64,000 nt of DNA from an uncultured Bacteroidota bacterium. GTDB lineage: Bacteria > Bacteroidota > Bacteroidia > JABEUT01. The translations under genes and the position numbers were made by a program. The notes under the pieces were generated by a model. The model had not been told where the DNA came from and ran no database searches. It was given only the letters and a program-made list of their open reading frames with translations. Each line of letters starts with the position of its first letter. Positions within the stretch are counted from its first letter, which is position 1. Shown here in pieces: positions 9,400 to 62,429 of the stretch. The stretch spans positions 4,799 to 68,798 of the forward strand of contig CAIUPO010000008.1 of NCBI GenBank assembly GCA_903901055.1, given 5' to 3'.

Positions 9400-10531
9400 G
9401 AAAAAAATACTTCTATTTAGTGATTGGTTTTACCCCGGGTTTATGGCCGGTGGGCCTATTCAGTCGTCATATAACCTGATTAACCACCTGAAAGATTATT
9501 ATGATTTTTCGGTTATTACAAGAGATACCGATTATACAGACAGTGTTCCATACAGGGATGTGAAAAGCGATAGCTGGAACATTTTACCTAATGGAATGAG
9601 GGTGTATTATTTTTCTGAGAAAAATCTGAGTTATCCCAATATGAGCAAGCTTATCAATAGCGAAGAGTTTGATATTGCATATCTGAACAGTATGTATTCG
9701 CCAAGGTTTACCATAATGCCGTTATTTATGCTTCATAAATTGGGTAAGCAGGTTATTCTTGCCCCTCGCGGGATGCTTGCCCCAACCGCAATAGCAATTA
9801 AAAGCTGGAAAAAAAAGCCCTTTTTATTGTGGATTAAGAATAGCAAGATGATTAAAAATATGAAGTTTCATGCAGCATCGGAGCATGAAGCGGAGCATAT
9901 AAGGGCTGTGTTTGGAAAAAAAGTGGAAATACGTCTTGCGCCTAATCTTCCCGGTAAAATGGAGTTGCCTGTTTCCGTTGAAAAAAGAAAAGAAATTGGT
10001 TCCGTTAACCTGATAAATGTAGCACGTGTTTCACCTGAAAAAAACCTGGATTATGCATTGGAGTCGCTACTTAATGTGAAAGGTAAAGTGAAATTTGATA
10101 TTTATGGCCCCGTTTACGATTATCCATATTGGGAAAAGTGTAAAGAAATATTGGCGAAACTCCCGGCAAACATAGAATGTGAATATTTTGGGCCAATAAG
10201 CAAGGAAAGTATCCCACAGGCAATGAAGGACGTACATTTTCTTTTTATGCCTACACAAGGTGAGAACTTTGGGCATACAATATTGGAAGCAATGATTTGT
10301 GGCTGTCCTCCCATAATAAGCGACATGACTCCCTGGATAGGGCTGGAGGCACTGAAAGCCGGATTTGATGTGCCATTAACAGAACAAAAAAGGTTTGAAG
10401 AAGTTTTGAATAAAGTAATTGGAATGGATGCGGATGAATTTAAAACCTGGTCAGAAGGAACAAGGGCTTTTGCATCAGGCTTTATCAACAATCCGGAATT
10501 GATGAAGCAAAGTATTCATATTTTTGCGTAA
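9392..10531 (+). CDS. Glycosyltransferase family 4 (GT-B fold)
   Basis: The C-terminal GT1/GT4 signature is present (FLFMPTQGENFGHTILEAMICGCPPIISD). The gene overlaps asnB by 8 nt. Confidence 0.75.
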   Translation: MPKKKILLFSDWFYPGFMAGGPIQSSYNLINHLKDYYDFSVITRDTDYTDSVPYRDVKSDSWNILPNGMRVYYFSEKNLSYPNMSKLINSEEFDIAYLNSMYSPRFTIMPLFMLHKLGKQVILAPRGMLAPTAIAIKSWKKKPFLLWIKNSKMIKNMKFHAASEHEAEHIRAVFGKKVEIRLAPNLPGKMELPVSVEKRKEIGSVNLINVARVSPEKNLDYALESLLNVKGKVKFDIYGPVYDYPYWEKCKEILAKLPANIECEYFGPISKESIPQAMKDVHFLFMPTQGENFGHTILEAMICGCPPIISDMTPWIGLEALKAGFDVPLTEQKRFEEVLNKVIGMDADEFKTWSEGTRAFASGFINNPELMKQSIHIFA

Positions 10532-24925: not shown

Positions 24926-25178
24926 ACTTTTACTTATAGCATATAGCTGATGGCTAATGGCTGTTTGGGCGGCAAAGATAGAAAGTTAACTAGAAACTAT
25001 GTAGGATGAGTTCTTCAGATATGCTATTTCTTTTGTTAGTTGCATTCTTGAGGCGAATAAGCAAGGAAAATTGATTGCAATAACTTCAATATTCAACTGT
25101 TAATAAAATGTACTTTAAGAATAGTGGGTTGCTTATTTATTGCATTAATTTTGTACAAAACACCGGAAACCAAAAAAG

Positions 25179-27890
25179 ATGAATAGAATCGTTACTATTT
25201 TAATCGGGATTATACTTTTTTCTGCATCTTCAGTTAAAGTAAAGGCCCAGTCCGGTTGCAGTTGCTGGCAACAAAGAGACACCAGTTTTCATTACGTGCC
25301 CTTTGCATGGGATAGTGATGGCAGTTATATTCCGAATCCTCCTTATTACCGTTGTGACGATGGAGCTACATTAGCCATACATCTGCCGTTTAATTTTTGT
25401 TTTTGGGGCACTGCGATGGATTCAGTTTTCATAAATACAAATGGCAATATCTCTTTTTACCAGCACATTTATGCATTTAGTCCAGATACGTTTCCTGTTT
25501 CGGATTACCGCATGATAGCCCCTTTTTGGGGAGATGTTGATTTACGGAGGTCTCCTTCAGCTGGAACTGATGTGGTTTTATATAAAATTACTTCACATTA
25601 CATGATAGTGCAATGGGATAGCGTTCGCTTTTTTGATGCTACTGTAGAGCCTTTTGGAAAATACAATTCTTTTCAATTAATAATAAGCGACGGCACTGAT
25701 CCAATTTTACCGAAGGGGAACAATGTAGAGTTTTGTTATCATACCATGCAATGGACAACAGGAGATGCTTCAGGCGGAAGTAAGGGGTTTGGTGGAGACC
25801 CTGCTACAGTTGGAGCTAACTATGGAGACGGCACTAAATTTATTCAAATGGGTTTGTTTGATACTGCTGGTAATAAGTACTTGGGCCAGTTTCCACCGGG
25901 ACCTTCGTATGATGGCGTAAGCTGGCTTAATAACAGGTCATTCCTGTTTAATCTCTGCTCCGGTTCAATTGCTCCGTTAACTTCCGGAATTTCGCCCTGC
26001 GATACCTTTAAAATTTGTGTAGGTGATTCAATGTTGATTCCACTTTACTTCTTTTCACCGGTTCAAAATGACTCGGTCTGGTCTAATTTATCGCCTCCTG
26101 TTCCACCCGGGGTAAGTGTCTATTCAAGCAAACCCGGACATACCGATAGTTTGACTATTAAAGTAGTTGGTAATTCATTCAATTTAGGATACCATACCAT
26201 CAATGTTTATGCGTATGATAATGAACACCCTCCTGATACCACATATACCTCATTTGTAATTGAAATTGATTCGTTGCCTAAAGTGAAAGTTAAGGCTGTA
26301 ATGGATACCATTTGTGCAGGGGATACTTCAGTACTTACTGCTTCTGGTTCGCAACTATATTTATGGAGTACAGGGGCCACAACTTCAATAATAAAAGTTA
26401 GCCCTCCATCCACCCAAACTTACACTGTAGGAGCATCGAATGGAGGATGCAATCATGATACTACAATTCAGGTTGTAGTATTGCCTAATCCGGCTCCAAC
26501 TATTATTGCAAAACCAGATACCATTTGCCCTAAGGATAGTGTATTACTAATTGCAGGAGGTGGCGGAACTTACAAATGGAGTACAGGACAGACGAAAGAT
26601 AGTATTTGGGTGAATCCTTTAACAACAAAGGTTTATTACCTGACTGCGACAAATGGAAAATGTTCTGACTCAGCGAAAATTTCAATTTTCGTCACAACTC
26701 CGGGCGCGTCAACTATTGCGTTGAATAAAGACAGTATTTGTCCTTATGACACAGTAATATTAACAGCAAGCGGCGGGGTAAAATATAAATGGAGTAATGG
26801 CGCAACAACAAGTTCAATAACTGTTACTCCGGGAAGTACCACAACTTACACCGTTTATTCGAATGTTACCTGTGCCATTGATACATTAAAGCAAAAGGTG
26901 ATCGTAATACCTCTTCCCGTGGCAACAATTACCGGGCGAACTGCCGTATGTAAAGGTCAGGGGGATACCATAACTGTTTCAGGCGGAATATCTTACCAAT
27001 GGAGTAACGGGAGTACAAAAAGCCAATATATTTTAAAAAATATTGGTGCTGATTCCACCATAAGTGTAAGGTTATTTAATGGCAAGTGTTATGTGGATAC
27101 AACCATAAAAATTACGATTGCCTCTCCGCCGATTATTAGTGTTATTGCGCCCGCAGTTGCTTGTTCAGGAACAATGGTTGTAATTAAGTCAAGTGTTTCG
27201 GGCAGCGGCCCTTTTAAGTATTTATGGAAACCGGGCAATCAAACAACAGATAGTATAGTTGTTGATGATACATCAAAAGTAACATACACGCTTGAAGTTT
27301 CAAATGGTTGTATTTCTACAACTAAAACCACCATAACACCGGATAACCCGCCTCTTAAAGCATGTTGCGACAAGGTAATTATATTAGGAGATGATACAGT
27401 CATAACAGCAAGCGGTAGTACGATTATTAAATATCAATGGATAGACTCCAATTTGGTAATATGCCAAAACCCACCGCTTTGCAGTGAAGTAAAAGTAACA
27501 CCTACTGTTACTACAACGTATACTGTTATTGGAACGGATACCTTAGGTTGTCAAAAAGAAATGGTAATAACTATAATAGTTGAGGTGCCCTGTTTCAATA
27601 TTACCGTGCCCAATGTAATTACACCAAACTTTGGCGCAGGCCATGTTGGGGTTAATGGAGGAACAAACAATGTGTTCTATATCCAAACCCAAAATATGGA
27701 TGGATGGTCAGTTCTAATTTATGACCGTTGGGGCAAGGAAATGTTCAAAACAACCAACCCGAATACTTACTGGAATTGCACTACGGAAGGCGGTGCCGAA
27801 GCACCCGATGGTGTTTATTATTACATCATTACAGGGTCATGCCAGGGGAAAACTTACAACCAACACGGATTTGTTCAAGTAATCAGATAA
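25179..27890 (+). CDS. Secreted protein with an N-terminal NIDO (nidogen-like) domain, Ig-like repeats and a T9SS type B C-terminal domain
   Basis: It has a signal peptide. The NIDO pattern (...LPFNFCFWGTAMDSVFINTNGNISF...IAPFWGDVDLR...VVLYK) is present, followed by repeated YKWSTGxT modules. The C-terminus is LIYDRWGKEMFKTTN...GVYYYI. Confidence 0.75.
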   Translation: MNRIVTILIGIILFSASSVKVKAQSGCSCWQQRDTSFHYVPFAWDSDGSYIPNPPYYRCDDGATLAIHLPFNFCFWGTAMDSVFINTNGNISFYQHIYAFSPDTFPVSDYRMIAPFWGDVDLRRSPSAGTDVVLYKITSHYMIVQWDSVRFFDATVEPFGKYNSFQLIISDGTDPILPKGNNVEFCYHTMQWTTGDASGGSKGFGGDPATVGANYGDGTKFIQMGLFDTAGNKYLGQFPPGPSYDGVSWLNNRSFLFNLCSGSIAPLTSGISPCDTFKICVGDSMLIPLYFFSPVQNDSVWSNLSPPVPPGVSVYSSKPGHTDSLTIKVVGNSFNLGYHTINVYAYDNEHPPDTTYTSFVIEIDSLPKVKVKAVMDTICAGDTSVLTASGSQLYLWSTGATTSIIKVSPPSTQTYTVGASNGGCNHDTTIQVVVLPNPAPTIIAKPDTICPKDSVLLIAGGGGTYKWSTGQTKDSIWVNPLTTKVYYLTATNGKCSDSAKISIFVTTPGASTIALNKDSICPYDTVILTASGGVKYKWSNGATTSSITVTPGSTTTYTVYSNVTCAIDTLKQKVIVIPLPVATITGRTAVCKGQGDTITVSGGISYQWSNGSTKSQYILKNIGADSTISVRLFNGKCYVDTTIKITIASPPIISVIAPAVACSGTMVVIKSSVSGSGPFKYLWKPGNQTTDSIVVDDTSKVTYTLEVSNGCISTTKTTITPDNPPLKACCDKVIILGDDTVITASGSTIIKYQWIDSNLVICQNPPLCSEVKVTPTVTTTYTVIGTDTLGCQKEMVITIIVEVPCFNITVPNVITPNFGAGHVGVNGGTNNVFYIQTQNMDGWSVLIYDRWGKEMFKTTNPNTYWNCTTEGGAEAPDGVYYYIITGSCQGKTYNQHGFVQVIR

Positions 27891-27994
27891 TATTTCTACC
27901 ATTCCGTCGTTAGTAATTATGTGCATTAATTAATTGATAGGTGCTATAATTAATTAAATTTGTACGTTATTCATAACATACCTTTTCTTTACCG

Positions 27995-30900
27995 ATGAAA
28001 AAAATTACAAGGCTTTCATTATTTCTTCTCAGTTTATTGCCTTTTCGGGGCTTTTCACAGTTGCCCAATATGGGTACAAACCCTAAGGGTGGCGGAAGCT
28101 GGATAGCTACTAAACCATTTCAACGGGATGTTTTTATTGAAAACAATGGCCAATTTTCTGCGGCAGAGAAAAAATTTGTCGGCAGTAAAATAAACTATTT
28201 TACCCATAAGGGAAGTGTGTATTTATACTTTACTCCAAACGGATTAGCGCTTCGTAAAGATACTGTCTATAAAGTGAAAGGGGAAGATAAGATAGGCATT
28301 GAACAGGAAGACGGGATGCGTGATTTGAGGATAAAACACATGCTCACTAAAATGCAGTTTGTAGGCGCAAACCCGAATGCAAAAATTGTAGTCGAAAATG
28401 AAACCCCTGATTACTTTACTTATCCTAATCATCAGGATAAGAGTGGAAAGTCAAGTGTATTAGCCCATGCATGGACTAAGCTTATCTACAAAAATATTTA
28501 TAAAGGAATCGATATTGAATTCTATTATCCTGAAGATAAAGGAGGGATTGAATACAATATCATTGTTCATCCGGGTGGAGATCCATCCGTTGTTAAGTTT
28601 TCATATTCCGGTTCAAACTGTTCCTTAAATGGAAATAACCTTGAAGTTGCTACAGGATGGGATAAAATTATTGACCATGCTCCAACGGCAAAGGATGCAA
28701 ATGGGCATACCGTTAGTGCTGCATTTGGCGTGAATGGAAACACTGTTTCTTTCCATGTTGGAAATTATGACAAATCCCAAACATTGGTAATTGATCCCTG
28801 GATGACCCTGACTACGTTGGGTGGCTCAAACCTTGGGTACGACATTGGTTATGATTACCTCGGAAACGTTTATGTTTATGGTGGCGGGGTTAGCGGCTAT
28901 TATGAATTACAGAAATATAACAGTGGCGGCGGATTGGTTTGGACATACACCAATAATGCCTTCACCTACTTGTATGTTACCGGTTATTTCTACGGTGGAA
29001 TGGTAACAGACCATAAAACAGGAACATCCTATATGTGTGAAGGATTTGATCCGTCACCTGGTTGTATGGTTGTAAAGGTTAATTACAACGGTACTCAGGC
29101 TGCATTATTTAACGGTAACAGTGGTACCGATGAAATGTGGCACATGGAATATGATTATTGTAACGATCAGTTATTGATTGTTACCGGTGGTTCACCTACT
29201 GGCCAACAATGTTGCCACATGGATACAAACTGCACCACCGAATCGCAGGTGAATATGTTATCGCTGGTTGGAGTATATTCTGACCAAACCCTTATTGGTA
29301 CAGATAATGCCGGACAATGTTATGTGGCTACATCGCAGATGGTGTTCCCTTCAGGCTATAGTAACTTGCTTTGCAAAATGCCTTTACCATCTATGACACC
29401 TACGGCGTATAATGTTTACGATAAACACAACTTTATTGAAATAACGAATATTAGCTACTATCCCGTTTTAAGTGGGTATGTAGTCGGTAATGGGTTTAAC
29501 GGACTTGTAGCAACCCCAACATTTGTGGTTACGTATGATGGTGGAAAAATGAGGCAGTGGAAGGCATCCAATGGTGCGCTTTTTGATTCAGCCACTGTTA
29601 GTGGTACATCGTATGCCTGGGGCGGACTGGATATAGATTGTCAGGGACATATTTATTGCGGGAACAACAATGCTATTAGTATTTACGATTCGAATATGAA
29701 CCCTGTTGGGAATATCCCGTTAAGCAACACGGTGTATGACCTTTTGGTGGCACCTAACGGCAATATTTATGCATGTGGAAATGGCTATGTTCAATGCGTT
29801 TCAGGTGCACCCAAACTAGTTACTGCAACTTACACTCCTGCAGGTTGTGCCTGCACTGGTTCAGCTACAGCGCATCCATGCGGTCCCGGCCCTTTCAGCT
29901 ATTTATGGAGTAATGGTGCAACCACCTCATCAATTACGAATATGTGTAGCGGAACCTATACTGTTACAGTATGGGAAGGCACATGCCCAAAACCTTTTGA
30001 TACTGCTATTGTAAATTTAGGCGCTGGAGGCGGTTTTGCTGCAACAGTGACAACCGTCAATGCAAGTTGCTCTTTGAATGGTTCTGCAACCGCAGTTCCA
30101 ACTGGAGGACACCCACCATACACCTACAAATGGAGCGATAATACTACCAATGTAAAAGATACCGGGTTAATTGCTGGCAATTATTATGTTTTAATATGGG
30201 ATAGTACTGGTTGTAAAGATTCAATTGCATTTACTATAACAAGTTCCGGAGCTCCAACAATTAAGGTTACACCTACAAATGACTCAATTTGTAATGGTGG
30301 AAGTGATTCACTGGTGGCTAGCGGTGGTCAAACCTATTCCTGGTTGCCAACTACAGGGCTTTCCTGCACCACATGCGCTAATCCAATTGCCTCACCCACA
30401 ATAACCACGATTTATACCGTTACCGGTGATTCAAATGGTTGTAAGGCGACGGCAACTGCCACTGTAACTGTATTGCCTCCTCCAACAATAAAAGTGTCTG
30501 CTTCTCCGGATACTGTTTGTAGTGGAAATCCAACAACAGTAACAGCTTCAGGAGGTGTTACCTACAAATGGAGTGATGGTTCTACAACAAGTTCAATAAC
30601 GGTTAAACCAATCGTAATGACAACCTATACTGTTATCGGGTTTGATGCCCATGGATGTTCAAACGCGGCTACTGTTACAATTTATGTTGCTTCGGCACCT
30701 AATCTGACCGTATCGGTAAATAAGAGTATATGCCCTGGCCAAAGTGTAACATTATCGGCATCGGGTGTAGGTTCAGGATATAACTGGCAACCCGGAAACA
30801 ATACAAGCCAAACCATTACGGTGTCTCCAACATCAACAACAACCTACACAGTTACGTTAAGCGATGGATGCGGAATTGCAACGGGAAATGTTACAGTAAA

Positions 30901-31708
30901 CGTAAACCCTATGCCGAATACCAAAATCACCGCAGATGTTATGGCAGGTTGTGCTCCTTTATGTATTCAATTCAGAAATACAACAACTATATCTTCAGGA
31001 ACTATTACCCAGTATAACTGGGCTTTTGGAAACGGGGATACTTTGAATGAAAAGAATCCCGTTTATTGTTATCCGAATCCGGGAAGTTATAATATCACTA
31101 TGACTGCTGTTTCCGATAGCGGTTGCAGTGCTACCTTGAAGGTGCTTAACATGATAAATGTTTACAGTCATCCGAATGCGAACTTTACAGTAAACCCGCA
31201 GCCAACAACTATTATGCAGCCAACTATTGAATTTGGAGATAAGTCAACTGATGCCTACGGAATAACCTACTGGAACTGGACGTTTGGCGATGCATTGGAT
31301 TCCGTTCAATATACCCAGAATGCAAGCCACACTTATGGGGATACAGGTACATATTGTGCTACATTGACAATTGTAAACCAACACGGCTGCGCTGATACAA
31401 TGACCAATTGCCTGATAATTTCACCTATTTATTGCTTATATATACCAGATGCATTTTCTCCCAATGGGGATGGTAAAAATGAATTTTTTACCGCGAAAGG
31501 AAATGATGTTATTTCATTTGAAATGTACATTTTCGACCGATGGGGAATGCAGTTATTCCATAGTACGGACATAAATGATGGCTGGAATGGTAGGGTAAGA
31601 GGCGGCAGTGTAATTTGCCAGGAAGATACTTATGTGTATTTAATTAATGTTTACGACAGTAAGAAAGCTAAGCATTCGTACACAGGAACTGTTAATCTTT
31701 TAAAATAA
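27995..31708 (+). CDS. Giant secreted adhesin with SprB repeats, PKD domains, Ig-like modules and a T9SS type B C-terminal domain
   Basis: It has a signal peptide. SprB-repeat signatures (e.g. GGHPPYTYKWSDNTT...GNYYVLIWDSTGCKDS) and PKD motifs (YNWAFGNGDT...PGSYNITMTAVSDSGC) are present. The C-terminus is FSPNGDGKNEFF...YIFDRWGMQLFHSTDINDGWNG. Confidence 0.85.
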   Translation: MKKITRLSLFLLSLLPFRGFSQLPNMGTNPKGGGSWIATKPFQRDVFIENNGQFSAAEKKFVGSKINYFTHKGSVYLYFTPNGLALRKDTVYKVKGEDKIGIEQEDGMRDLRIKHMLTKMQFVGANPNAKIVVENETPDYFTYPNHQDKSGKSSVLAHAWTKLIYKNIYKGIDIEFYYPEDKGGIEYNIIVHPGGDPSVVKFSYSGSNCSLNGNNLEVATGWDKIIDHAPTAKDANGHTVSAAFGVNGNTVSFHVGNYDKSQTLVIDPWMTLTTLGGSNLGYDIGYDYLGNVYVYGGGVSGYYELQKYNSGGGLVWTYTNNAFTYLYVTGYFYGGMVTDHKTGTSYMCEGFDPSPGCMVVKVNYNGTQAALFNGNSGTDEMWHMEYDYCNDQLLIVTGGSPTGQQCCHMDTNCTTESQVNMLSLVGVYSDQTLIGTDNAGQCYVATSQMVFPSGYSNLLCKMPLPSMTPTAYNVYDKHNFIEITNISYYPVLSGYVVGNGFNGLVATPTFVVTYDGGKMRQWKASNGALFDSATVSGTSYAWGGLDIDCQGHIYCGNNNAISIYDSNMNPVGNIPLSNTVYDLLVAPNGNIYACGNGYVQCVSGAPKLVTATYTPAGCACTGSATAHPCGPGPFSYLWSNGATTSSITNMCSGTYTVTVWEGTCPKPFDTAIVNLGAGGGFAATVTTVNASCSLNGSATAVPTGGHPPYTYKWSDNTTNVKDTGLIAGNYYVLIWDSTGCKDSIAFTITSSGAPTIKVTPTNDSICNGGSDSLVASGGQTYSWLPTTGLSCTTCANPIASPTITTIYTVTGDSNGCKATATATVTVLPPPTIKVSASPDTVCSGNPTTVTASGGVTYKWSDGSTTSSITVKPIVMTTYTVIGFDAHGCSNAATVTIYVASAPNLTVSVNKSICPGQSVTLSASGVGSGYNWQPGNNTSQTITVSPTSTTTYTVTLSDGCGIATGNVTVNVNPMPNTKITADVMAGCAPLCIQFRNTTTISSGTITQYNWAFGNGDTLNEKNPVYCYPNPGSYNITMTAVSDSGCSATLKVLNMINVYSHPNANFTVNPQPTTIMQPTIEFGDKSTDAYGITYWNWTFGDALDSVQYTQNASHTYGDTGTYCATLTIVNQHGCADTMTNCLIISPIYCLYIPDAFSPNGDGKNEFFTAKGNDVISFEMYIFDRWGMQLFHSTDINDGWNGRVRGGSVICQEDTYVYLINVYDSKKAKHSYTGTVNLLK

Positions 31709-31830
31709 ATTTCTATCGGAAGGCATCTGATGATAGGGTGGTAAGGGTGGAGGAAGTAACCAAAATGGAGCAAAATGCGTTTAAAGTATTACAAAATAGT
31801 GTAACTTTGTTCCGGAAATACAATAGGCTA

Positions 31831-33900
31831 ATGAATAAAAAGATTATAATATCTTTTTTATCGCTTTTAAATTTACTAGCATTTACTTTTAATGTCCGGG
31901 CTGAAAAGCATAGCAAAACTTGTTCCAATAATCCTTTATATTCTGCTACAATAGTCCCTGTTGCAAACTTCACTGCAAACAGAACTATAGTTTGTGTAGG
32001 AGATACTATTGCATTCACGGATTTATCTGCTAATGGCCCTACCGCCTGGAAGTGGACATTTAACGGTGGAACACCACCAACCTCAATCACGCAAAACGAA
32101 AAGGTTGTTTACAACATTGCTGGTACATATACTGTAAAACTGGTTGTTAGCAATATTGCAGGCTCTGATAGTATGACGAAGGTTAATTACATTGTTGTAA
32201 ATCCGTTACCTAATGTTAAAGTGAATCCTTCGGCTCCATTTATTTGCAAAGGAGATAGTGTTATGCTAACGGCATCCGGCGCGGCAACTTATACCTGGCA
32301 TCCAACGACAGGATTAAGTTGTACAACTTGCCCAAATCCTTATTCAAAAGTAAATGCAAACATAACTTATACCGTTGTTGGGAAAAATGCCTCGGGGTGT
32401 ATCGATTCTACCAGTGTAACCGTAACTGTAGGGAGTATTGTTGTTTCCATAAGTGCATCAGATACTAATATTTGCCAGGGTAATTCAGATACACTGACCG
32501 CAATGGGTGCCAATTCATATTTGTGGAGTAATGGTGCCACAACAAGTCAAATAATAGTTTCACCATCCTCTTCAACTACATATACTGTAATTGGTACAAG
32601 CCTTACTTGTATTGATACTGCTACTTTTAAAGTGAATGTATTTCCTGCACCTAATATTGTAATTTTAGGTACGGATAGTGTTTGTATTGGTGGCTCAACA
32701 ATACTTACTGCTACAGGTGCTGTGAATTATTTCTGGGCACCTTCTTCAGGACTTAGCTGTACATCGTGCCCAAGCCCCATGGTTAGCCCTACAATCACAA
32801 CTACTTATACAGTTATAGGAACCGATAATAACGGATGCAGCAATGCTACTACAGTTACTGTTTATGTCGAACAATTGCCTACGGTTGTTGCCCACACCGG
32901 CTTACCTGCAATATGCTCCGGTTCAGGAATGGCAACAAGTTTATCTGCCAATGGCAACCCGTCAGGTGGAACTTATGTATGGCAGCCTTGTAATAAGACT
33001 GGGCAAGCAGTAATCGATACACCAACTGTCACTACTGTCTACACGGTTTACTATACCAACTCCTGCGGAACAGCAACAGATACGGTAAGGGTGAATGTGT
33101 ACCCTCAGCCCAAGGTTGTGTTTTTTGCAAGTTCGAAATCCGGGTGTGCCCAATTTTGTGTTCAATTTACAGGGATAAACCTTACACCCGGAGTTAAAAT
33201 ACTTACATGGACCTGGGACTTTGGAGATGGCGGCACTTCTAATTTACAAAGCCCTCCTTATTGTTATAAAACTCCCGGAACATATACCGTTACTTTATCA
33301 GCTTATACAGCTAACTGTAGTACGCAGACGCAAATTGCAGATTATATCACTGTTCATGCATTGCCAAAGGCTGATTTCTCATATTCTCCCGACCCTGCAA
33401 CTATACTCGATCCTGTAGTAGCATTTGAGGATAAAACTACCGGGACTGCTCCAATTACAAGTTGGGCCTGGAATTTTGGTGATACAAACTATTTTTCAAA
33501 CTATAACCGTTATCCTACCCATACTTATCTTGATACCGGGTACTATTGTGTTCAACTTGCTGTTAGCGATAAGAATGGATGTGTTGATACCAATAAACAA
33601 TGTTTTGATATTAATTCCCAATATAGCTTTTATGTTCCCAGTTCATTCTCTCCAAACGGTGATAACATAAATGATATTTTTATACCAAAGGGAACGTATA
33701 TAAGCAATTTCGAAATGTACATTTATGACCGTTGGGGTATGCAATTATACCACACTACGGATATAACGGATGGATGGAATGGCAAAGTAAAAAACACCGG
33801 TAAAATTTGCCAGGAAGATGTGTATGTTTACGTGATAAGCGTAAATGATAAGAAAGGGTTGCCACACCATTATACAGGCTCGATTTATCTGCTGAAGTAG
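31831..33900 (+). CDS. Secreted adhesin-like protein with PKD and Ig-like domains and a T9SS type B C-terminal domain
   Basis: The start was set at MNKKIIISFLSLLNLLAFTFNVRA (signal peptide). The ORF opens earlier, at 31738, and overlaps the upstream gene. TGLSCTTCPNP/TGLSCTSCPSP modules and PKD motifs are present. The C-terminus is FSPNGDNINDIFIPKG...YIYDRWGMQLYHTTDITDGWNG. Confidence 0.8.
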   Translation: MNKKIIISFLSLLNLLAFTFNVRAEKHSKTCSNNPLYSATIVPVANFTANRTIVCVGDTIAFTDLSANGPTAWKWTFNGGTPPTSITQNEKVVYNIAGTYTVKLVVSNIAGSDSMTKVNYIVVNPLPNVKVNPSAPFICKGDSVMLTASGAATYTWHPTTGLSCTTCPNPYSKVNANITYTVVGKNASGCIDSTSVTVTVGSIVVSISASDTNICQGNSDTLTAMGANSYLWSNGATTSQIIVSPSSSTTYTVIGTSLTCIDTATFKVNVFPAPNIVILGTDSVCIGGSTILTATGAVNYFWAPSSGLSCTSCPSPMVSPTITTTYTVIGTDNNGCSNATTVTVYVEQLPTVVAHTGLPAICSGSGMATSLSANGNPSGGTYVWQPCNKTGQAVIDTPTVTTVYTVYYTNSCGTATDTVRVNVYPQPKVVFFASSKSGCAQFCVQFTGINLTPGVKILTWTWDFGDGGTSNLQSPPYCYKTPGTYTVTLSAYTANCSTQTQIADYITVHALPKADFSYSPDPATILDPVVAFEDKTTGTAPITSWAWNFGDTNYFSNYNRYPTHTYLDTGYYCVQLAVSDKNGCVDTNKQCFDINSQYSFYVPSSFSPNGDNINDIFIPKGTYISNFEMYIYDRWGMQLYHTTDITDGWNGKVKNTGKICQEDVYVYVISVNDKKGLPHHYTGSIYLLK

Positions 33901-36619: not shown

Positions 36620-37984
36620 ATGAACAACCTGAAACAATTAATTACTGCACTGTTACTACTTATTTTGCCAATTATTTCAAAATCTCAAAATATATACACC
36701 ATTGCCGGAAACGGCAATCAAGGCTATAGTGGAGATGGGTTATCTGCAACATCTATGTACTGTGAGTTAAATACTCCATCGTGTTTATTTATTGATTCTA
36801 TTGGAAATATTTATTTTACAGATACTGACAATGACGTAGTTCGTAAAATAAATTCTTCAGGAATTATCTCCACATTTGCCGGGAGTCATATACTTGGCGC
36901 AGGATTTAGTGGTGATAACGGACAAGCTACTAATGCGCAGTTAAATATACCGTACGGTCTTACTATAGACAAAGTAGGTAATATTTATATTGCAGATTAT
37001 GGTAATAATGCCATTCGTAAAATTAATACCACAGGTGTAATTACGACTGTGGCCGGAATTGGAGTAGGTGGTTTTAGCGGGGATAATAACCTTGCAACTT
37101 TGGCCGAACTAAATCATCCAACATCTGTGTTTGTTGATATTCCTGGCAATATCTATATTGGAGATTGCGGTAATCATAGGATACGTAAAATAAATATTTC
37201 TGGTATAATTACTTCCATTGCAGGAAATGGGAAAGGTGGGTATTATGCTGATGGTGGCCTCGCTGATACTTCTGAAATTAATTCTCCCTTTGACATTTCT
37301 ATGGATAAATCAGGGAGCCTCTATTTTTGTGACCCTGCTTATGATGTTGAAAGAATACGCAAAATAAACTCTTCTGGTTTTATTTCTACAATAGCCGGAA
37401 ATGGTATACAGGGATATAGCGGGAATGGAGGACCAGCCACATCAGCAGAACTATATGCTCCTACATCTTTTTCTATTGATAATTCTGGTAATATTTATTT
37501 TACCGACCAGGGAAATCAACGAATTCGCAAAATTGACACTTTGGGCAATATTACCGCTATTGCTGGAATTGGTATTAGTGGTTTTAGCGGAGAAGGAGGA
37601 CCTGCAAGTGCCGCAGAATTTAATTTTCCAGTTGGTATAGCATTGGACAACTCTGATAATATTTATTTAGTTGACCAACTTAACCAGAGGATACGAAAGA
37701 TATCCAATTTGACAGGAATAAAAGATACTCAAGCAAATACAAACATAGCAATTTACCCAAACCCAACAAATCAATTATTAACTATAAACTTTTATGGGCA
37801 ATTTGTGGGGCCTGCCACCCTTTCAATTATTGATATAAGAGGAAGGGAAGTTTTTAATTCTCAATTGAAAATTGAAAATTCTCAATTGCTAGTAAATGTT
37901 GCATGTCTTTCTGCTGGCATGTATTTTATGGAAATAGTAAGTTATGATAAAAAAAGTGTCATTAAAAAGTTCATTAAACAATAG
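36620..37984 (+). CDS. NHL-repeat beta-propeller protein with a T9SS type A C-terminal sorting domain
   Basis: The signal peptide starts at the internal Met (MNNLKQLITALLLLILP). Six NHL-like repeats are present (YIADYGNNAIRKIN, YIGDCGNHRIRKIN, YFTDQGNQRIRKID...). The C-terminal Por_Secre_tail is IAIYPNPTNQLLTINF...GMYFMEIV. Confidence 0.8.
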   Translation: MNNLKQLITALLLLILPIISKSQNIYTIAGNGNQGYSGDGLSATSMYCELNTPSCLFIDSIGNIYFTDTDNDVVRKINSSGIISTFAGSHILGAGFSGDNGQATNAQLNIPYGLTIDKVGNIYIADYGNNAIRKINTTGVITTVAGIGVGGFSGDNNLATLAELNHPTSVFVDIPGNIYIGDCGNHRIRKINISGIITSIAGNGKGGYYADGGLADTSEINSPFDISMDKSGSLYFCDPAYDVERIRKINSSGFISTIAGNGIQGYSGNGGPATSAELYAPTSFSIDNSGNIYFTDQGNQRIRKIDTLGNITAIAGIGISGFSGEGGPASAAEFNFPVGIALDNSDNIYLVDQLNQRIRKISNLTGIKDTQANTNIAIYPNPTNQLLTINFYGQFVGPATLSIIDIRGREVFNSQLKIENSQLLVNVACLSAGMYFMEIVSYDKKSVIKKFIKQ

Positions 37985-38009
37985 ATTTAACAATTAAACC
38001 AATAACATT

Positions 38010-38162
38010 ATGAAAACTATAATTTTTAATAAGCCGCTCACACTAACTTTTCTTATAATATTAGTTAATGCTTTTTTTACTTTAGGTCAAATATCAACCC
38101 CCACAAATACAATAACATCATCTGGAAATTATGTTGGAACAGACGCGTCCTCTATTACATAG
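38010..38162 (+). other. Signal-peptide segment (MKTIIFNKPLTLTFLIILVNAFFTLGQ...) in frame with the following ORF but separated from it by a TAG codon at 38160-38162
   Basis: ATG at 38010 opens 50 codons, then a TAG at 38160. The 832-aa ORF continues in the same frame from 38169 (TTG). Confidence 0.6.
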
Positions 38163-38168
38163 CCCGAC

Positions 38169-40667
38169 TTGTCATTCCAAACTTTAGGGAAGCAATATAT
38201 GGATTTAACAACAGCGGGGTATTTGGGTATATGGGATAACACCACTTACGGTGCTTACACGCCCACTCATTTAATAGATGTTTGGAATGGGGATATAAAT
38301 GTTACTTCAACTTCTGGAACAAATGGATTTATGATTAGTGGAAATCCAGTACTAAATAATGGAGGAGATGTTACATGTATATTTGTTGGGCAACAAGCCA
38401 GTGCGACCTCTTATTCATTCAATCATCTTACTTGCGTCGGTAGTGGCGCAGGAACCGACTTAACCGCAGGCATTTATGATTCATACCTGGGATTTTCAGC
38501 AGGAGGATTAGATGCAGATGGCTCATTTAATACTTTTATAGGTGCCTTTGCAGGGGCATCTACAAATGGGGGTGGATGGCCCGCTGGAAGTTATAATACT
38601 TTTACAGGATACGAGTGTGGCTTAGAAAATATTAGTGGGAAATCAAATTGCTTTTATGGAAAAGCGGCAGGATATTATAATGATGGCGCTTATAATTGCA
38701 TGTATGGCGGGCATTCTGGAAACGGAACAGTTTTATATGGTGCTGATAGTAATTGTTTTTATGGAGAATATAGTGCCAATAAAATACACTATGGCAATGA
38801 TAATATAGTAATGGGATTTGGGTCAGGGGAAAATACTGGCGAGTTAGCCCCAAGTGATTGGAATGTATTCATAGGAGGGAATGGCAGAGTTTTAGGGCAG
38901 TCAAATCCTTCAGGAATTTATAATGTTACCCTAGGTTTTGGTGCTGATGCCTATACAAGTTCATCTGCAACACCAGGAACAATTAATAACTCCGTTGCAA
39001 TCGGTGCGGATGCAATTGTAAGCCATGATAATCAATTTATACTTGGCAATAATTCGCAATTTTTAGGTATCGGCATGGTTGGAGACTCTTATGGGCTTGG
39101 GCCAATGGCTAATCTTGAAATTATGACAGACCAAAATACGGTTCCACCTTATGGTAGTTTTGGGTTTATTGGAAATGGATATTATAATTCTCTAAATTTT
39201 TATGCAGGTACAAGCGCAAGTCCCGGAACTGGCTTTAGTGGGTTAAAGTTTCGTGATTTAACATCTAATTCTAACCCTGTCGACCCCACCAGCGCAAATT
39301 TTAATCCATCCGAAGGAAACCCTTATCCGGCAGGTGTTTTAAGCATCGATGGATTCGGAAATGTGATCTATATTCCTGCTCCGGCTGCTTCATTAGGTAC
39401 GTGTGGAAGTCCGACATTGTTACCAGCCGGAGGAACTGGGGCAATAGATTTGAATGGGGGCAATTTTTATTTCTCAGGAAATGGTACAGGTGCTGCCGGG
39501 GTTGATAATGTTGCAATAGGACTGAATTGTTCCGTAACTCCAAACGCAAAATTAGAAGTGATTCAAGCTTCGGGCGATAATAATACGATTGGAACATACA
39601 TAACCAATTCAGATGGCAACACCGGTGCATTTGGCACCCCAACCCCAACTATAGGAATGGTAGCCTTTATGCCACAACCTTCAAATACTACCAATACTTT
39701 TTACAATGTTGCAGGCTGGTTTCAAGCCGATGGCGGCCCCAACATTGATATTTCAAGTTCTCTTATGCAGTATGCTATTTTTGTTCCAAGTACAATAAAT
39801 CCTGTTGACGGAACTACCCTTCCGGGCGGAACTGTTGATATTGGCTATCAATTCGCCCTGGATGTTCCCGACTACCTGTTAGACGTGAACGATTATGCTA
39901 GAATTGACGGCACTGTAGTTCCCTCCGATTCAAACTTAAAAAAGAGTATCACTCCGTTCAAATATGGCTTGAAAGCTATACGCAACCTGAGTCCTATTAA
40001 CTACAAATATAATGGCATAGGCGGTTTCGATTCCACCAAAAGCTTCATTGGTCTTATAGCTCAAAACCTTCAACGAAACGTGCCAAGCGGTGTGAAGAAA
40101 TCTCATATAATAAAAGACACTATTAACCGTGATACAGCAACTATTCTCAATATATACGAAGAGGCTGTAATGTATACGGCAGTTAATGCCATCAAAGAAT
40201 TGGATTCTACTGTTACAAGTAAAAATAAAACAATAGATAGTTTACGTACCACACTTGACAGTTTGCGCAGTGCATTCAAAGGCTTTCAGGATTGCCTGAA
40301 CAGGCTTTGTAATACGCATGGGCATATAGGAGGTGGCAATTCAGGAAATGATAATAACAATGAGAATACTTCTAATATTCAAGATGTAGCTTTATCTAAT
40401 GCAAATGCTCCTTTGCTTTATCAAAACATTCCGAACCCATTTAGCAGTAATACCAAAATAAATTATTACTTGCCTGTGGGTACTATTGGGGCTACTATCG
40501 TGTTTTATGATAGCTATGGCAATCAAATGAAGGAAGTTCAATTGAGCCAAACAGGCAATGGCACATTAAACATCAACCCTGAAAATTTAAGTAATGGTAT
40601 TTACTCATACAGCCTTGTTGTAAACGGCAAGGTTGTTGATACCAAAAGAATGATTTTGCAGAAATAG
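38169..40667 (+). CDS. Tail-fibre-like Gly-rich protein with a Peptidase_S74 intramolecular-chaperone domain and a T9SS type A C-terminal sorting domain. The N-terminal signal peptide is detached by an in-frame stop.
   Basis: NxFxGxxAG-type Gly-rich repeats fill the N-terminal body. SDSNLKKSITPFKYGLKAIRNLSPINYKYN matches the S74 chaperone motif (SDxRLKxNI...PVxYxYK). A coiled-coil-like stretch follows. The C-terminal Por_Secre_tail is LYQNIPNPFSSNTKINYYL...GIYSYSLVVNGKVVDTKRMILQK. Confidence 0.7.
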   Translation: MSFQTLGKQYMDLTTAGYLGIWDNTTYGAYTPTHLIDVWNGDINVTSTSGTNGFMISGNPVLNNGGDVTCIFVGQQASATSYSFNHLTCVGSGAGTDLTAGIYDSYLGFSAGGLDADGSFNTFIGAFAGASTNGGGWPAGSYNTFTGYECGLENISGKSNCFYGKAAGYYNDGAYNCMYGGHSGNGTVLYGADSNCFYGEYSANKIHYGNDNIVMGFGSGENTGELAPSDWNVFIGGNGRVLGQSNPSGIYNVTLGFGADAYTSSSATPGTINNSVAIGADAIVSHDNQFILGNNSQFLGIGMVGDSYGLGPMANLEIMTDQNTVPPYGSFGFIGNGYYNSLNFYAGTSASPGTGFSGLKFRDLTSNSNPVDPTSANFNPSEGNPYPAGVLSIDGFGNVIYIPAPAASLGTCGSPTLLPAGGTGAIDLNGGNFYFSGNGTGAAGVDNVAIGLNCSVTPNAKLEVIQASGDNNTIGTYITNSDGNTGAFGTPTPTIGMVAFMPQPSNTTNTFYNVAGWFQADGGPNIDISSSLMQYAIFVPSTINPVDGTTLPGGTVDIGYQFALDVPDYLLDVNDYARIDGTVVPSDSNLKKSITPFKYGLKAIRNLSPINYKYNGIGGFDSTKSFIGLIAQNLQRNVPSGVKKSHIIKDTINRDTATILNIYEEAVMYTAVNAIKELDSTVTSKNKTIDSLRTTLDSLRSAFKGFQDCLNRLCNTHGHIGGGNSGNDNNNENTSNIQDVALSNANAPLLYQNIPNPFSSNTKINYYLPVGTIGATIVFYDSYGNQMKEVQLSQTGNGTLNINPENLSNGIYSYSLVVNGKVVDTKRMILQK

Positions 40668-41443: not shown

Positions 41444-41630
41444 CGCCCTTGCCCGTTATTCGGGAATGGGGTTTCAGATAGCAGCCTCTATTATTATTTG
41501 TTTGTTACTGGGTAAGTGGCTGGATGCTAAGTTCCCCATGAAGTTTCCGGTATTTACAACAGCACTTACAATTCTGGGAGTTTTTCTGGGGGTATTTTTT
41601 GTAATCAGAGATTTATTAAAAAAGAAATGA
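41388..41630 (+). CDS. AtpZ/AtpI-family small membrane protein
   Basis: ARYSGMGFQIAASIIICLLLGKWLD is followed by a second TM helix, the typical AtpZ (PF09527) architecture. It overlaps the bactofilin ORF by 56 nt. Confidence 0.6.
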   Translation: MDRNQPKKEAKESRRQSLNALARYSGMGFQIAASIIICLLLGKWLDAKFPMKFPVFTTALTILGVFLGVFFVIRDLLKKK

Positions 41631-60858: not shown

Positions 60859-61136
60859 AAAGGGTATTATTTATCAAAATTAAGATGACAATGTACAATT
60901 ATTATTAAATGACCAATTGAACCGATAAAAAGAATGTTTCAACAGCACATTCCCTCTGTTCATCTATTTTTCTTTTGAATGCGTTGATTCAGTTGGTAAT
61001 TTAAGGTTAGTAAAAACCTATTCTATACCAATATGTGAATAATGGAAAATTACCATGAGATTATATAAGAGCCATGGTTTTAAGGGAAGCTAACTTGCAA
61101 ACTAAAATCAAATAAATCACTTTAACACCTACCATT

Positions 61137-61766
61137 ATGAAACCTTCACACCGTACTTTCGCACTTTACACGGCATTTATGCTTTGTATTACCCCTGCGG
61201 TCTTTAGTCAGAGTGGTTCCGATGAGACCATATTTGGTAAAGGCTCAAATGTAATAAGCCTTGGCGTTGGAATTGGTGGAGCCTATACCTATTATGGCGA
61301 TGGCTATACTTCTACCCCTAATTTTGTAATCTCTTATGATAATGGCACATTTGGCAATGTTGGGCCTGGCACAATTAGCCTAGGTGCACTATTCGCATAC
61401 AAGGGAATAGCCTATAGCTATACCGATTTTTATTCCCGTTATAATTACGACCAAAAATGGAACTACTATATCCTCGGTGTTCGTAGCGCTTATCATTTAA
61501 GTATTCCAAGTGTACCAAGGTTCGATCCATACATTGGCATTATGCTGGCTTATTATGATATAAGCTATAAAGAGACTAGCACCGACCCGTTTTTTAATGT
61601 ACCCGGAAGTCCCTATTATTATTACTATTCCAATAGCTACGCAAGTTACATGGCTTTCAGTCTTTATATAGGTGCCAGGTATTTTGTAAGCGACCATATA
61701 GGCTTCTGGCTCGAGCTTGGATATGGCTATTCAAATGCAGCACTCGGCATAAGTTTCAAGCTATAA
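61137..61766 (+). CDS. Outer-membrane beta-barrel domain protein (Tyr/Gly-rich)
   Basis: It has a signal peptide. Amphipathic Y/G-rich strands alternate, and the C-terminus ends with an aromatic or hydrophobic residue (LGISFKL). Confidence 0.55.
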   Translation: MKPSHRTFALYTAFMLCITPAVFSQSGSDETIFGKGSNVISLGVGIGGAYTYYGDGYTSTPNFVISYDNGTFGNVGPGTISLGALFAYKGIAYSYTDFYSRYNYDQKWNYYILGVRSAYHLSIPSVPRFDPYIGIMLAYYDISYKETSTDPFFNVPGSPYYYYYSNSYASYMAFSLYIGARYFVSDHIGFWLELGYGYSNAALGISFKL

Positions 61767-61778
61767 TCAGAAGGTTTT

Positions 61779-62429
61779 ATGAAATCATTCAGGTTTTTTC
61801 TGGTTTTAGTAACAGCGCTTTTAAGCGGAAACAAAGGGATAGCACAAACAGAGATTAATGATGATTATTATAAACCGGCAAAGAGTCGACCTGTTTATTC
61901 AGAAAGCTCAAACCTGATTTATGCCGGAATTGGAGAGGGCGGATATTACCCCTATTCCGGATTAAGATATACCCAGAAACCCAATATCACTTTAATTTAC
62001 GAACGTGTTATATTCAAACACTTAGGCCCTGGAACATTAAATGCAGGGCCCTTACTTTCATTTAAAAATATTGCAAGCCAGTATTTAGATTATAATACAG
62101 GATTTAAATATGAACAGCGTTGGAATTATTATCACATAGGGGCCCGACTGGCCTACAATTTACATATTTTTCCGGGTAATTCAATTGTGCCTTATGCAGG
62201 TGCTATGATAGGCTACTATATCACCGATTTTAAATTTAGCAGTAATGACCCTAATTATTCCGATCCAACTGACCCCGCTTACTATCTGACAACGAATAGA
62301 TACCCCGATTTTTTTGCCATGAGTATTTTAGCCGGCATTCGCTCTACAATGGGTTACCATACAAGTGTTTGGCTGGAACTTGCTTATGGTTATTCTTCAG
62401 TTTCATTTGGTGTTTGTTATAGCCTGTAA
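61779..62429 (+). CDS. Outer-membrane beta-barrel domain protein, paralog of the upstream gene
   Basis: It has a signal peptide and the same strand pattern (WLELAYGYSSVSFGVCYSL). It lies 12 nt downstream of its paralog. Confidence 0.55.
   Translation: MKSFRFFLVLVTALLSGNKGIAQTEINDDYYKPAKSRPVYSESSNLIYAGIGEGGYYPYSGLRYTQKPNITLIYERVIFKHLGPGTLNAGPLLSFKNIASQYLDYNTGFKYEQRWNYYHIGARLAYNLHIFPGNSIVPYAGAMIGYYITDFKFSSNDPNYSDPTDPAYYLTTNRYPDFFAMSILAGIRSTMGYHTSVWLELAYGYSSVSFGVCYSL

Follow-up and report, generated by a model that had tools for sequence, protein, structure and literature searches.

An in-frame amber codon parts the signal peptide from a fibre-like T9SS cargo protein in an uncultured Bacteroidota bacterium: a probable recent nonsense allele

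How is a gene to be understood in which a single in-frame stop codon lies between the predicted export signal and the cargo to be exported, while everything downstream of it is undamaged? This question is raised by a locus in the genome of an uncultured Bacteroidota bacterium, in the 64-kb (64,000 nucleotides) stretch of contig CAIUPO010000008.1 that we analysed as a whole and refer to here as the window. The stop could be an error of sequencing or assembly, the mark of a recent mutation, a site of read-through, or the ordinary end of one gene preceding the start of another. To this end, we brought together the reading frame and its neighbourhood, the homologs that align across the stop, the domain architecture of the encoded protein and the records of this DNA in public assemblies.

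The interrupted reading frame

All features described below are on the forward strand. The leader ORF (38010..38162) begins with ATG at 38010, comprises 50 sense codons encoding MKTIIFNKPLTLTFLIILVNAFFTLGQISTPTNTITSSGNYVGTDASSIT and is closed by an amber TAG at 38160..38162, which stands in the context ACA TAG CCC with a C at the +4 position. The same frame then continues as the gene body (38163..40667), which runs through 834 sense codons to a terminal TAG at 40665-40667 and has two candidate internal starts, namely TTG at 38169 (832 codons) and ATG at 38199 (822 codons), the latter corresponding to the 822-aa database protein P0001. On re-derivation, the ATG, the signal-peptide leader of 50 codons and the stop were all found where the first-pass annotation had placed them.

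Based on hydropathy, the first 26 residues of the leader (38010..38087) are predicted to form a Sec signal peptide, with K2 and K8 in the n-region and LTLTFLIILVNAFFTL as the h-region. The hydropathy maximum of 2.55 is reached at residues 12-25, and cleavage is likely to occur at TLG|Q. The Gln at this predicted site (Q27, 38088-38090) is invariant in our homolog alignment (A1), which agrees with the Bacteroidetes Q-rule, according to which a Gln follows the cleavage site in signal peptidase I substrates (PMC5837995). Residues 8-27 of the leader contain the sole hydrophobic 12-mer (Kyte-Doolittle > 2) of the entire 885-codon frame; a scan of the whole body recovered no hydrophobic segment downstream of the TAG, which bears out the earlier statement that the downstream ORF has no signal peptide of its own.

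We also surveyed the 37 window ORFs that reach 200 codons or more: upstream of the stop that precedes such an ORF, the frame stays open for a median of 10 codons. Three cases with much longer upstream stretches were seen, of which two are unrelated gene pairs and the third (61116-62429) has no Pfam match. Together with the Pfam searches, this survey found no other split gene in the 64-kb window. The juxtaposition of leader and body is not a matter of chance.

Upstream of the leader is a gene for a 454-aa NHL-repeat protein (36620..37984), which bears a signal peptide of its own and in which Pfam and TIGR04183 recognise NHL repeats and a T9SS type A C-terminal domain (CTD) (TEN_NHL, 138 bits; NHL, 65.5; Por_Secre_tail, 53; TIGR04183, 43.7). 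It likewise ends in TAG, 25 nt upstream of the ATG at 38010. The same order, with an NHL gene followed by a Peptidase_S74 gene across a spacer of 30-50 nt, recurs at two loci with homologs (L081 and L082), and this conserved spacing indicates that the upstream ATG was the ancestral start. The other neighbours of the locus in the window are lnt, bactofilin and ATP-synthase genes, with no phage-tail genes around it, and no tRNA genes were found in the 64 kb.

Homologs aligning across the stop

Four intact homologs (P0002, P0003, P0005 and P0008; 794-838 aa), the three closest of which share 41-51% identity with the interrupted gene, each possess a signal peptide of their own, and the leader aligns to their N-termini. 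P0005 (E = 1e-9) and P0002 (E = 7e-7) can both be aligned across the TAG, with no gap at its position. None of the four displays a stop at this column, all of them having sense codons instead, such as TCC (Ser) at L081, TCT (Ser) at L084 and CTT (Leu) at L082. As TCG (Ser) and TTG (Leu) are each a single base change away from TAG, one of these two is most likely the ancestral codon. Taken together, the alignments indicate that leader and body were formerly one gene, with the leader as its ancestral 5' end. It had been suggested that orthologs might begin at the downstream site with a signal peptide of their own; the close homologs all start upstream instead, and their signal peptides end in ...A|Q. 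A further relative, P0006 from locus L083, was entertained as a second case of the same stop and rejected, as it shows nanopore-assembly frameshifts and lacks the N-terminus.

A scan of genome contigs with the family alignment returned no close ortholog and also missed the window's own genome; it was swamped by the generic CTD motif Q-N-x-P-N-P-F, and recovered mostly unrelated T9SS cargo from Ignavibacteria and other lineages. When a positional ortholog in a sister species was sought via lnt, none was on record, the nearest lnt relatives being 66-72% identical. One such locus (L089) retains the lnt-TMEM175-CHU_C synteny and has no NHL-S74 pair beside lnt, and another (L090) has neither. Hence, paralog-level relatives are the basis on which we judge both what the ancestral codon was and how old the mutation is. 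A sister-lineage genome does exist, as is shown by P0054, an lnt fragment with 96% identity.

Domain architecture of the ancestral product

From its sequence, the ancestral product is predicted to have been a secreted protein of ~885 aa, combining the Sec signal peptide with Gly/Asn-rich fibre-like repeats, a Peptidase_S74 domain, a coiled coil and a T9SS type A CTD. The Peptidase_S74 or intramolecular chaperone auto-processing (ICA) domain (39924..40094; PF13884) is detected with 38.4 bits against a cut-off of 22, over model positions 1-57 of 58. It displays an S-D-x-x-x-K motif with the Ser at 39924-39926 and the Lys at 39939-39941, and its S54, D55 and K59 (in the numbering of window 39765-40664) are invariant in 10/10 sequences of a second alignment (A3). 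We take the Ser and Lys of this motif to be a putative catalytic dyad, as in the endosialidase chaperone domains. The ICA domain of MyRF (7dc3) was recovered as a PDB sequence match and as a fold match at E = 5e-4. Neither the Peptidase_S74 domain nor the conserved pairing with the NHL-repeat gene upstream had been noticed in the first-pass annotation. No paper pairing T9SS with Peptidase_S74 was found in the literature that we searched.

The C-terminal sorting domain (40431..40664) scores below threshold with both profiles for it: 20.7 bits against a cut-off of 27 for PF18962 (E = 5e-4, model positions 3-74 of 75) and 17.9 bits against a cut-off of 23 for TIGR04183. In the precomputed Pfam list, PF18962 is assigned to P0001, P0003 and P0008. 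The motifs QNxPNPF and GxYxYxLxV of this domain are invariant in A3, and its AF2 model is a 7-strand beta-sandwich (pLDDT 77-85). A published study describes the T9SS type A CTD fold as a compact 7-strand Ig-like beta-sandwich (PMC11285876). Foldseek searches with the model recovered the T9SS substrate CTDs 8glk_D (TMt 0.64), 8gl8_D and 8gl6_D, with weak E-values of ~1e-2, and also PorU (6za2). Thus, the earlier description of a frame leading to a T9SS type A CTD holds fully for the frame, which is open as far as 40665-40667, whereas the CTD is below the curated cut-offs and is backed by motifs and predicted fold. In the four intact homologs, signal peptide and CTD reside on one polypeptide, as befits T9SS type A cargo; here the TAG parts the signal peptide from the body, and the interrupted gene is therefore a disrupted member of this class.

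Occurrence of the stop in public assemblies

Gene calls for precisely this 50-aa product are found in at least 10 public contig records. In two ENA assemblies it is followed by the 822-aa product: the ERZ1426622 contig measures 37.7 kb and begins 310 nt before the NHL gene, the ERZ1426601 contig is 1.77 kb long, and their ends differ both mutually and from those of the window. The 822-aa downstream product is seen on 8 contigs, which come from NCBI, ENA and Logan, and the 50-aa product and the NHL neighbour have the same distribution across the collection. All recorded copies are identical, the P0001 cluster consisting of 1 member, and among ~5.8 billion protein clusters there is no intact allele, the next-best match being 51% identical. 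For a 124-aa neighbour, DNA from other samples was recovered, but those contigs end at 41449, short of the TAG; a scan of JGI metagenomes using the junction with NNN at the stop gave no match. We conclude that the stop is genuine rather than an artefact confined to a single assembly, judging from product calls on contigs that may in part go back to one study or to shared read sets.

An error of sequencing or assembly, with the true genome having a sense codon at 38160-38162 and an intact gene, would require just one base difference and would fit the intactness of the remaining ORF. However, the 50-aa product depends on the stop and is found in those records, including the two ENA assemblies with differing boundaries; the 822-aa product recurs across three sources, with no intact version in the protein collection; and the lesion is a substitution rather than a homopolymer indel in a window with no other split gene. 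We consider such an error very improbable. The first-pass annotation had ranked a recent nonsense mutation and a sequencing error jointly first; the former gains from the homologs, which are continuous and have Ser or Leu at the column, and the latter loses from the presence of the product in assemblies with differing boundaries.

Interpretation of the interruption

The reading that we favour, with a probability of about 0.78, is a genuine single-base nonsense mutation of codon 51, i.e. a recent loss-of-function allele or young pseudogene of an ancestrally ~885-aa secreted protein; it is most likely an ordinary loss-of-function mutation rather than a new decoding mechanism. The stop lies inside a sequence that is homologous on both sides to uninterrupted relatives, as expected of a young pseudogene, and bacterial genes commonly contain in-frame stops, most of which are transient at the population level (PMC7918605). 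Ribosomes initiating at the ATG at 38010 would terminate at the UAG after 50 residues, so that a signal peptide would be made without its cargo. Products initiated at the TTG at 38169 or the ATG at 38199 would have no signal peptide and could not pass the inner membrane on the way to the T9SS. The body is undamaged, with the S-D-x-x-x-K and CTD motifs all in place, and the remaining 2.5 kb would have escaped further lesions because too little time has passed. We infer both that export has been lost and that the mutation is recent. On the other side of the ledger, the lack of a second lesion in the 834 codons is also how a still-expressed gene would look, and, among Salmonella pseudogenes, read-through is most frequent where a UAG is followed by C (PMC9122581), so that some full-length protein might be made. 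Spontaneous read-through at this weak UAG-C context could yield a small full-length fraction, by accident rather than by design.

That observation leads to the alternative of a functional, leaky or programmed read-through, in which the stop throttles expression and a small, possibly regulated fraction of the product is full-length and exportable. The intact downstream codons with all their family-invariant motifs are compatible with this, as is the UAG-C context: in the cases of pseudogene read-through in Salmonella 68.6% of the stops are UAG and C is the commonest +4 base (PMC9122581), and there are reports of bacterial in-frame stops that are subject to purifying selection (PMC7918605). Yet the stop is present in none of the homologs, the base at -1 is A rather than the enriched C, TAG serves as an ordinary terminator in the window, including at the end of the interrupted gene itself, and an intact body is equally expected of a young pseudogene. 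A recoding RNA element was considered and rejected: the region after the stop folds with an MFE of -24.2 kcal/mol, hardly below the mean of -22.8 for shuffled sequences (z = -0.43), and a search of Rfam at E <= 1 gave no match at the site. We hence regard functional read-through as unlikely, in keeping with the first-pass annotation, which had placed it behind mutation and error; that ranking is upheld by the lack of conservation of the stop, the lack of RNA structure after it and the regular use of TAG in the window. A related idea is that the UAG acts as a conditional switch, the fibre becoming exportable only when UAG decoding rises, be it through spontaneous UAG-C read-through or through a suppressor tRNA from a TAG-recoded phage. 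We retain it as a long shot, given that nothing in the body is damaged and that no other allele is on record; positive support for it was not found.

The gene callers' rendering of the locus as 50 aa plus 822 aa would alternatively suit two separate genes, one for a small secreted peptide with a 50-aa precursor and the other for a cytoplasmic tail-fibre-like protein initiated at the TTG or the internal ATG, perhaps as part of a phage-tail-like particle. S74 domains are indeed typical of phage fibres assembled in the cytoplasm, and a terminase gene adjoins the homolog at L081. Against this, each homolog is one uninterrupted gene that includes a signal peptide, the retained T9SS CTD would be useless without Sec export, the 24 post-signal residues of the leader are homologous to the mature N-terminus of the relatives rather than forming a distinct peptide family, and the surroundings of the locus in the window are free of phage-tail genes. 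These features make a two-gene arrangement highly doubtful. The least credible proposal is that TAG has been reassigned (to Gln or pyrrolysine), or that a phase-variation or cassette-switching system has the split form as one of its states. Reassignment was rejected since TAG ends 15 of the 57 window ORFs of at least 120 codons, including the interrupted gene and its NHL neighbour, and since reading it as sense brings no special gain in ORF length, the ORFs being lengthened less than when TGA is read as sense. As for switching, in other samples the assemblies are broken close to the locus (at 41449, and at ~38202 in ERZ1426601) and the junction in L088 is non-matching, which hints at strain-level structural variation; however, low coverage accounts equally well for breaks in short contigs, and inversion or cassette switching was rejected, as no inverted or direct repeats flank the TAG and the composition is unremarkable.

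Relationship to known systems and significance

As a recent nonsense allele, the interrupted gene resembles the pseudogenes of Salmonella Typhi and Paratyphi A (PMC9122581) and the in-frame stops catalogued across prokaryotes (PMC7918605) in having a single premature stop in an otherwise intact, recently functional gene. With its UAG and C at +4, it belongs to the class most often leaky in the former set (PMC9122581); its presence only in near-identical strains fits the short persistence reported for the latter (PMC7918605). Unlike those cases, its host is an uncultured Bacteroidota bacterium, and its stop sits at the boundary between export signal and cargo, for which reason re-initiation downstream cannot rescue function.

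With T9SS type A cargo such as RemA and NucA of Flavobacterium johnsoniae and RgpB of Porphyromonas gingivalis, it ancestrally shares a predicted Sec signal peptide followed by Gln and a C-terminal beta-sandwich of ~80 aa with PNPF and GxY motifs, and the model of its CTD appears to resemble the translocon-bound CTDs of NucA and RemA. It differs in that its CTD is below the HMM cut-offs, its signal peptide is no longer joined to it, and a predicted self-cleaving S74 domain is positioned upstream of the CTD. Similarly, the above-threshold Pfam match, the invariant S-D-x-x-x-K, the coiled coil after it and the fold match relate it to the chaperone domains of phage endosialidases and tail fibres and to the ICA domain of MyRF (7dc3). 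In contrast to the phage proteins, it is encoded on a bacterial chromosome, in a window with no phage tail module, and is predicted to be secreted, with a T9SS CTD following the chaperone domain.

If the favoured reading is correct, the nonsense allele is of minor importance, being one more case in which a point mutation has silenced, in a natural population, the gene for a surface or secreted protein. Were the UAG instead a conditional switch, the surface-fibre gene would be throttled or responsive to infection. With regard to annotation, the 822-aa database ORF (P0001) would best be regarded as the 3' portion of a disrupted gene instead of a cytoplasmic protein. Of mild use is the recognition of a conserved two-gene cassette in uncultured Bacteroidota, in which an NHL-repeat T9SS protein is followed by a tail-fibre-like T9SS protein with a predicted self-cleaving S74 chaperone domain; its interrupted copy may serve as a natural test case for UAG-C read-through in Bacteroidota.

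Layout and ancestry of the interrupted fibre gene

Re-reading of the sequence bore out the frame laid out in the first-pass annotation: ATG 38010 (+) opens the peptide MKTIIFNKPLTLTFLIILVNAFFTLGQISTPTNTITSSGNYVGTDASSIT, and after 50 codons a TAG at 38160-38162 (codon 51) is followed by 834 open codons in the same frame, up to the TAG at 40665-40667. The ORF listing gives a 50-aa leader ORF with an ATG start (from 38010) and an 832-aa downstream ORF with a TTG start (38169-40667); public gene callers prefer ATG 38199, which results in the 822-aa protein P0001. Leader residues 8-27 are the sole location of strongly hydrophobic 12-mers across the 885-codon frame, and a hydrophobicity search of this whole frame recovered no signal-peptide-like segment downstream of the TAG, as expected from the earlier claim that the downstream ORF has no signal peptide.

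The comparison with homologs proposed in that annotation identified four proteins that cross the TAG column of the alignment without a break, each with its own N-terminal signal peptide: P0002 (838 aa, 51% identity), P0003 (838 aa, 49%), P0005 (794 aa, 41%) and the more distant P0008. In pairwise BLASTP the fused N-terminus aligns ungapped at the stop with both P0005 (T-X-PDLSF paired with T-S-HDLPF; E = 1e-9) and P0002 (T-X-PDLSF opposite T-L-TDVVF; E = 7e-7). Q27, immediately past the hydrophobic core, is invariant in the homolog alignment, which fits the Bacteroidetes Q-rule, according to which cleavage by signal peptidase I leaves Gln at the new N-terminus (PMC5837995). The codons homologous to the TAG in the DNA of the relatives are TCC (Ser), TCT (Ser) and CTT (Leu), and a single substitution separates TAG from Ser TCG and likewise from Leu TTG. 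By these sequence comparisons, leader and body form one gene; the alternative of two independent genes is very improbable given the uninterrupted homologs with signal peptides of their own.

A conserved NHL-S74 cassette in varied neighbourhoods

Directly upstream of the interrupted gene lies a gene for an NHL-repeat protein with a strong C-terminal T9SS sorting domain (CTD; 36620-37984), a pairing that the first-pass annotation overlooked. The NHL-then-S74 order, with a spacer of 30-50 nt, also occurs beside P0003 (contig L081) and P0002 (contig L082). On comparison of these sequences, the pair is a conserved two-gene cassette (window 36620-40667; L081 4580-8517; L082 4610-8517), in which an NHL protein of ~455 aa is followed 25-50 nt later by the start of a tail-fibre-like partner combining Peptidase_S74 with a T9SS CTD. 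Since order and spacer are conserved in L081 and L082, the ancestral start is the upstream ATG.

The genomic neighbourhood of the cassette differs among the three contigs. L081 carries two tandem NHL copies, a terminase large-subunit gene directly after the P0003 homolog (8590-10011) and, 5 kb beyond it, a phage integrase gene (13804-14517); judging from the last two genes, prophage remnants may adjoin some cassette copies. L082 has a further NHL gene as well as a PTL_trimer gene on the other strand. Contig L089, which shares its metagenome of origin with P0002, has the lnt-TMEM175-CHU_C synteny of the window (lnt 67% identical); the cassette is absent next to its lnt, and no positional ortholog is therefore available for comparison with the interrupted gene. 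Adjoining TMEM175 and lnt, a series of very large genes for PKD/SprB/CHU_C cargo (T9SS type B) is syntenic between the window (25149-33900, +) and L089 (12226-20621). A direct repeat (31430-31638 vs 33622-33830, 71%) lies close to the 3' ends of two neighbouring genes in this series; its second copy falls inside the CHU_C domain of gene 31696-33900.

On the nanopore-derived contig L083 (1613-6572), the NHL gene and its S74 partner (P0006) are each split into several ORFs by frameshifts, and the fibre lacks its N-terminus. Homopolymer indel errors, or else decay of this copy, are the probable cause. We rejected this copy as a parallel, with frameshifts there against a single TAG here. Downstream of the fibre gene, the 360-nt gap between its stop and a bactofilin gene holds a sub-threshold match to Rfam Flavo-1 (RF01705; 40693-40789, +; 33 bits vs a gathering score of 42, E = 2.2e-4, full model 1-76 covered).

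Reality and meaning of the stop

The 50-aa leader product is callable only where the stop is present. This exact product occurs on at least 10 contig records, with the same distribution over the collection as the NHL neighbour. They include a 37.7-kb contig of ENA assembly ERZ1426622, starting just 310 nt before the NHL gene, and a 1.77-kb contig of ERZ1426601; unlike these, the window extends 36 kb further upstream. P0001 is on record for 8 contigs (NCBI, ENA, Logan), and further samples hold strains 99.9-100% identical to the window. The assemblies with the stop likely rest on independent read sets. None of the roughly 5.8 billion protein clusters searched supplied an intact allele (next-best match 51% identical), and the junction had no copy in JGI contigs. 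A random sequencing error is improbable: the lesion is a substitution, and a look for further split genes in the window turned up none. Three more pairs of long, adjacent ORFs share a frame there; two consist of unrelated genes, and in the third (61116-61766 and 61767-62429, +) neither ORF has a Pfam match. The members of this third pair, about 216 and 220 aa long with one TAA between them, may be paralogous neighbours or a single split gene. Three other assemblies (two from ENA and one from Logan) contain contigs 99.9-100% identical to the window that all start at 41449-41450, within a small ATPase_gene1 ORF; contig L088 instead has, upstream of 41541, 121 nt that differ from the window sequence. 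The pattern points to structural variation between strains, or to a branch in the assembly graph, just downstream of the cassette.

Selected or regulated read-through of the UAG is unlikely. The context ACA-UAG-C is the one point that might favour some read-through, by analogy with Salmonella pseudogenes, in which UAG accounts for 68.6% of in-frame-stop read-through cases and the +4 base is most often C (PMC9122581). Against it, none of the homologs carries a stop at this column, the predicted fold of the 120 nt after the stop shows no stability beyond that of shuffled sequence (z = -0.43), an Rfam search at the site gave no match and a tRNA search of the window found none. Reassignment or phase variation is the least credible reading of all: TAG terminates 15/57 long ORFs in the window, including the interrupted gene and its neighbour, and counting it as sense extends ORFs by no more than the same treatment of TGA, which excludes reassignment for the window; no repeats indicating an invertible or cassette-switching element were found.

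We therefore favour, at a probability of roughly 78%, a young loss-of-function allele. A recent point mutation would have created UAG at codon 51, such that translation from the native start would stop after the signal peptide and 24 residues. The remaining 2.5 kb would either go untranslated or yield a product that lacks an export signal, leaving the fibre unable to get to the periplasm or the T9SS. The body would not yet have been further damaged, and traces of full-length protein may come from background leak at UAG-C. The ranking in the first-pass annotation, with nonsense mutation ahead of programmed read-through, thus stands. The event is an ordinary one of a well-known kind; surveys of bacterial genes find in-frame stops to be frequent and, for the most part, short-lived events at the population level (PMC7918605).

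Domains of the body

The body has two recognisable domains. The Peptidase_S74 intramolecular-chaperone domain (38.4 bits vs a cut-off of 22), overlooked in the earlier account, has an invariant S-D-x-x-x-K motif and matches the MyRF ICA domain (7dc3) in both sequence and fold. The T9SS type A CTD, which that account had recognised, scores below the HMM threshold; the assignment draws support from two invariant motifs, QNxPNPF and GxYxYxLxV, and from a predicted 7-strand beta-sandwich (pLDDT 77-85) resembling the NucA and RemA CTDs in their T9SS translocon-bound form. The literature searched yielded no paper with both 'T9SS' and 'Peptidase_S74', and this domain combination was not encountered there. 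In the window (39924-40664), the putatively self-cleaving S74 chaperone domain sits N-terminal to the sorting domain. The predicted autocleavage would free the fibre from its CTD, raising the question of when cleavage takes place relative to T9SS transport.
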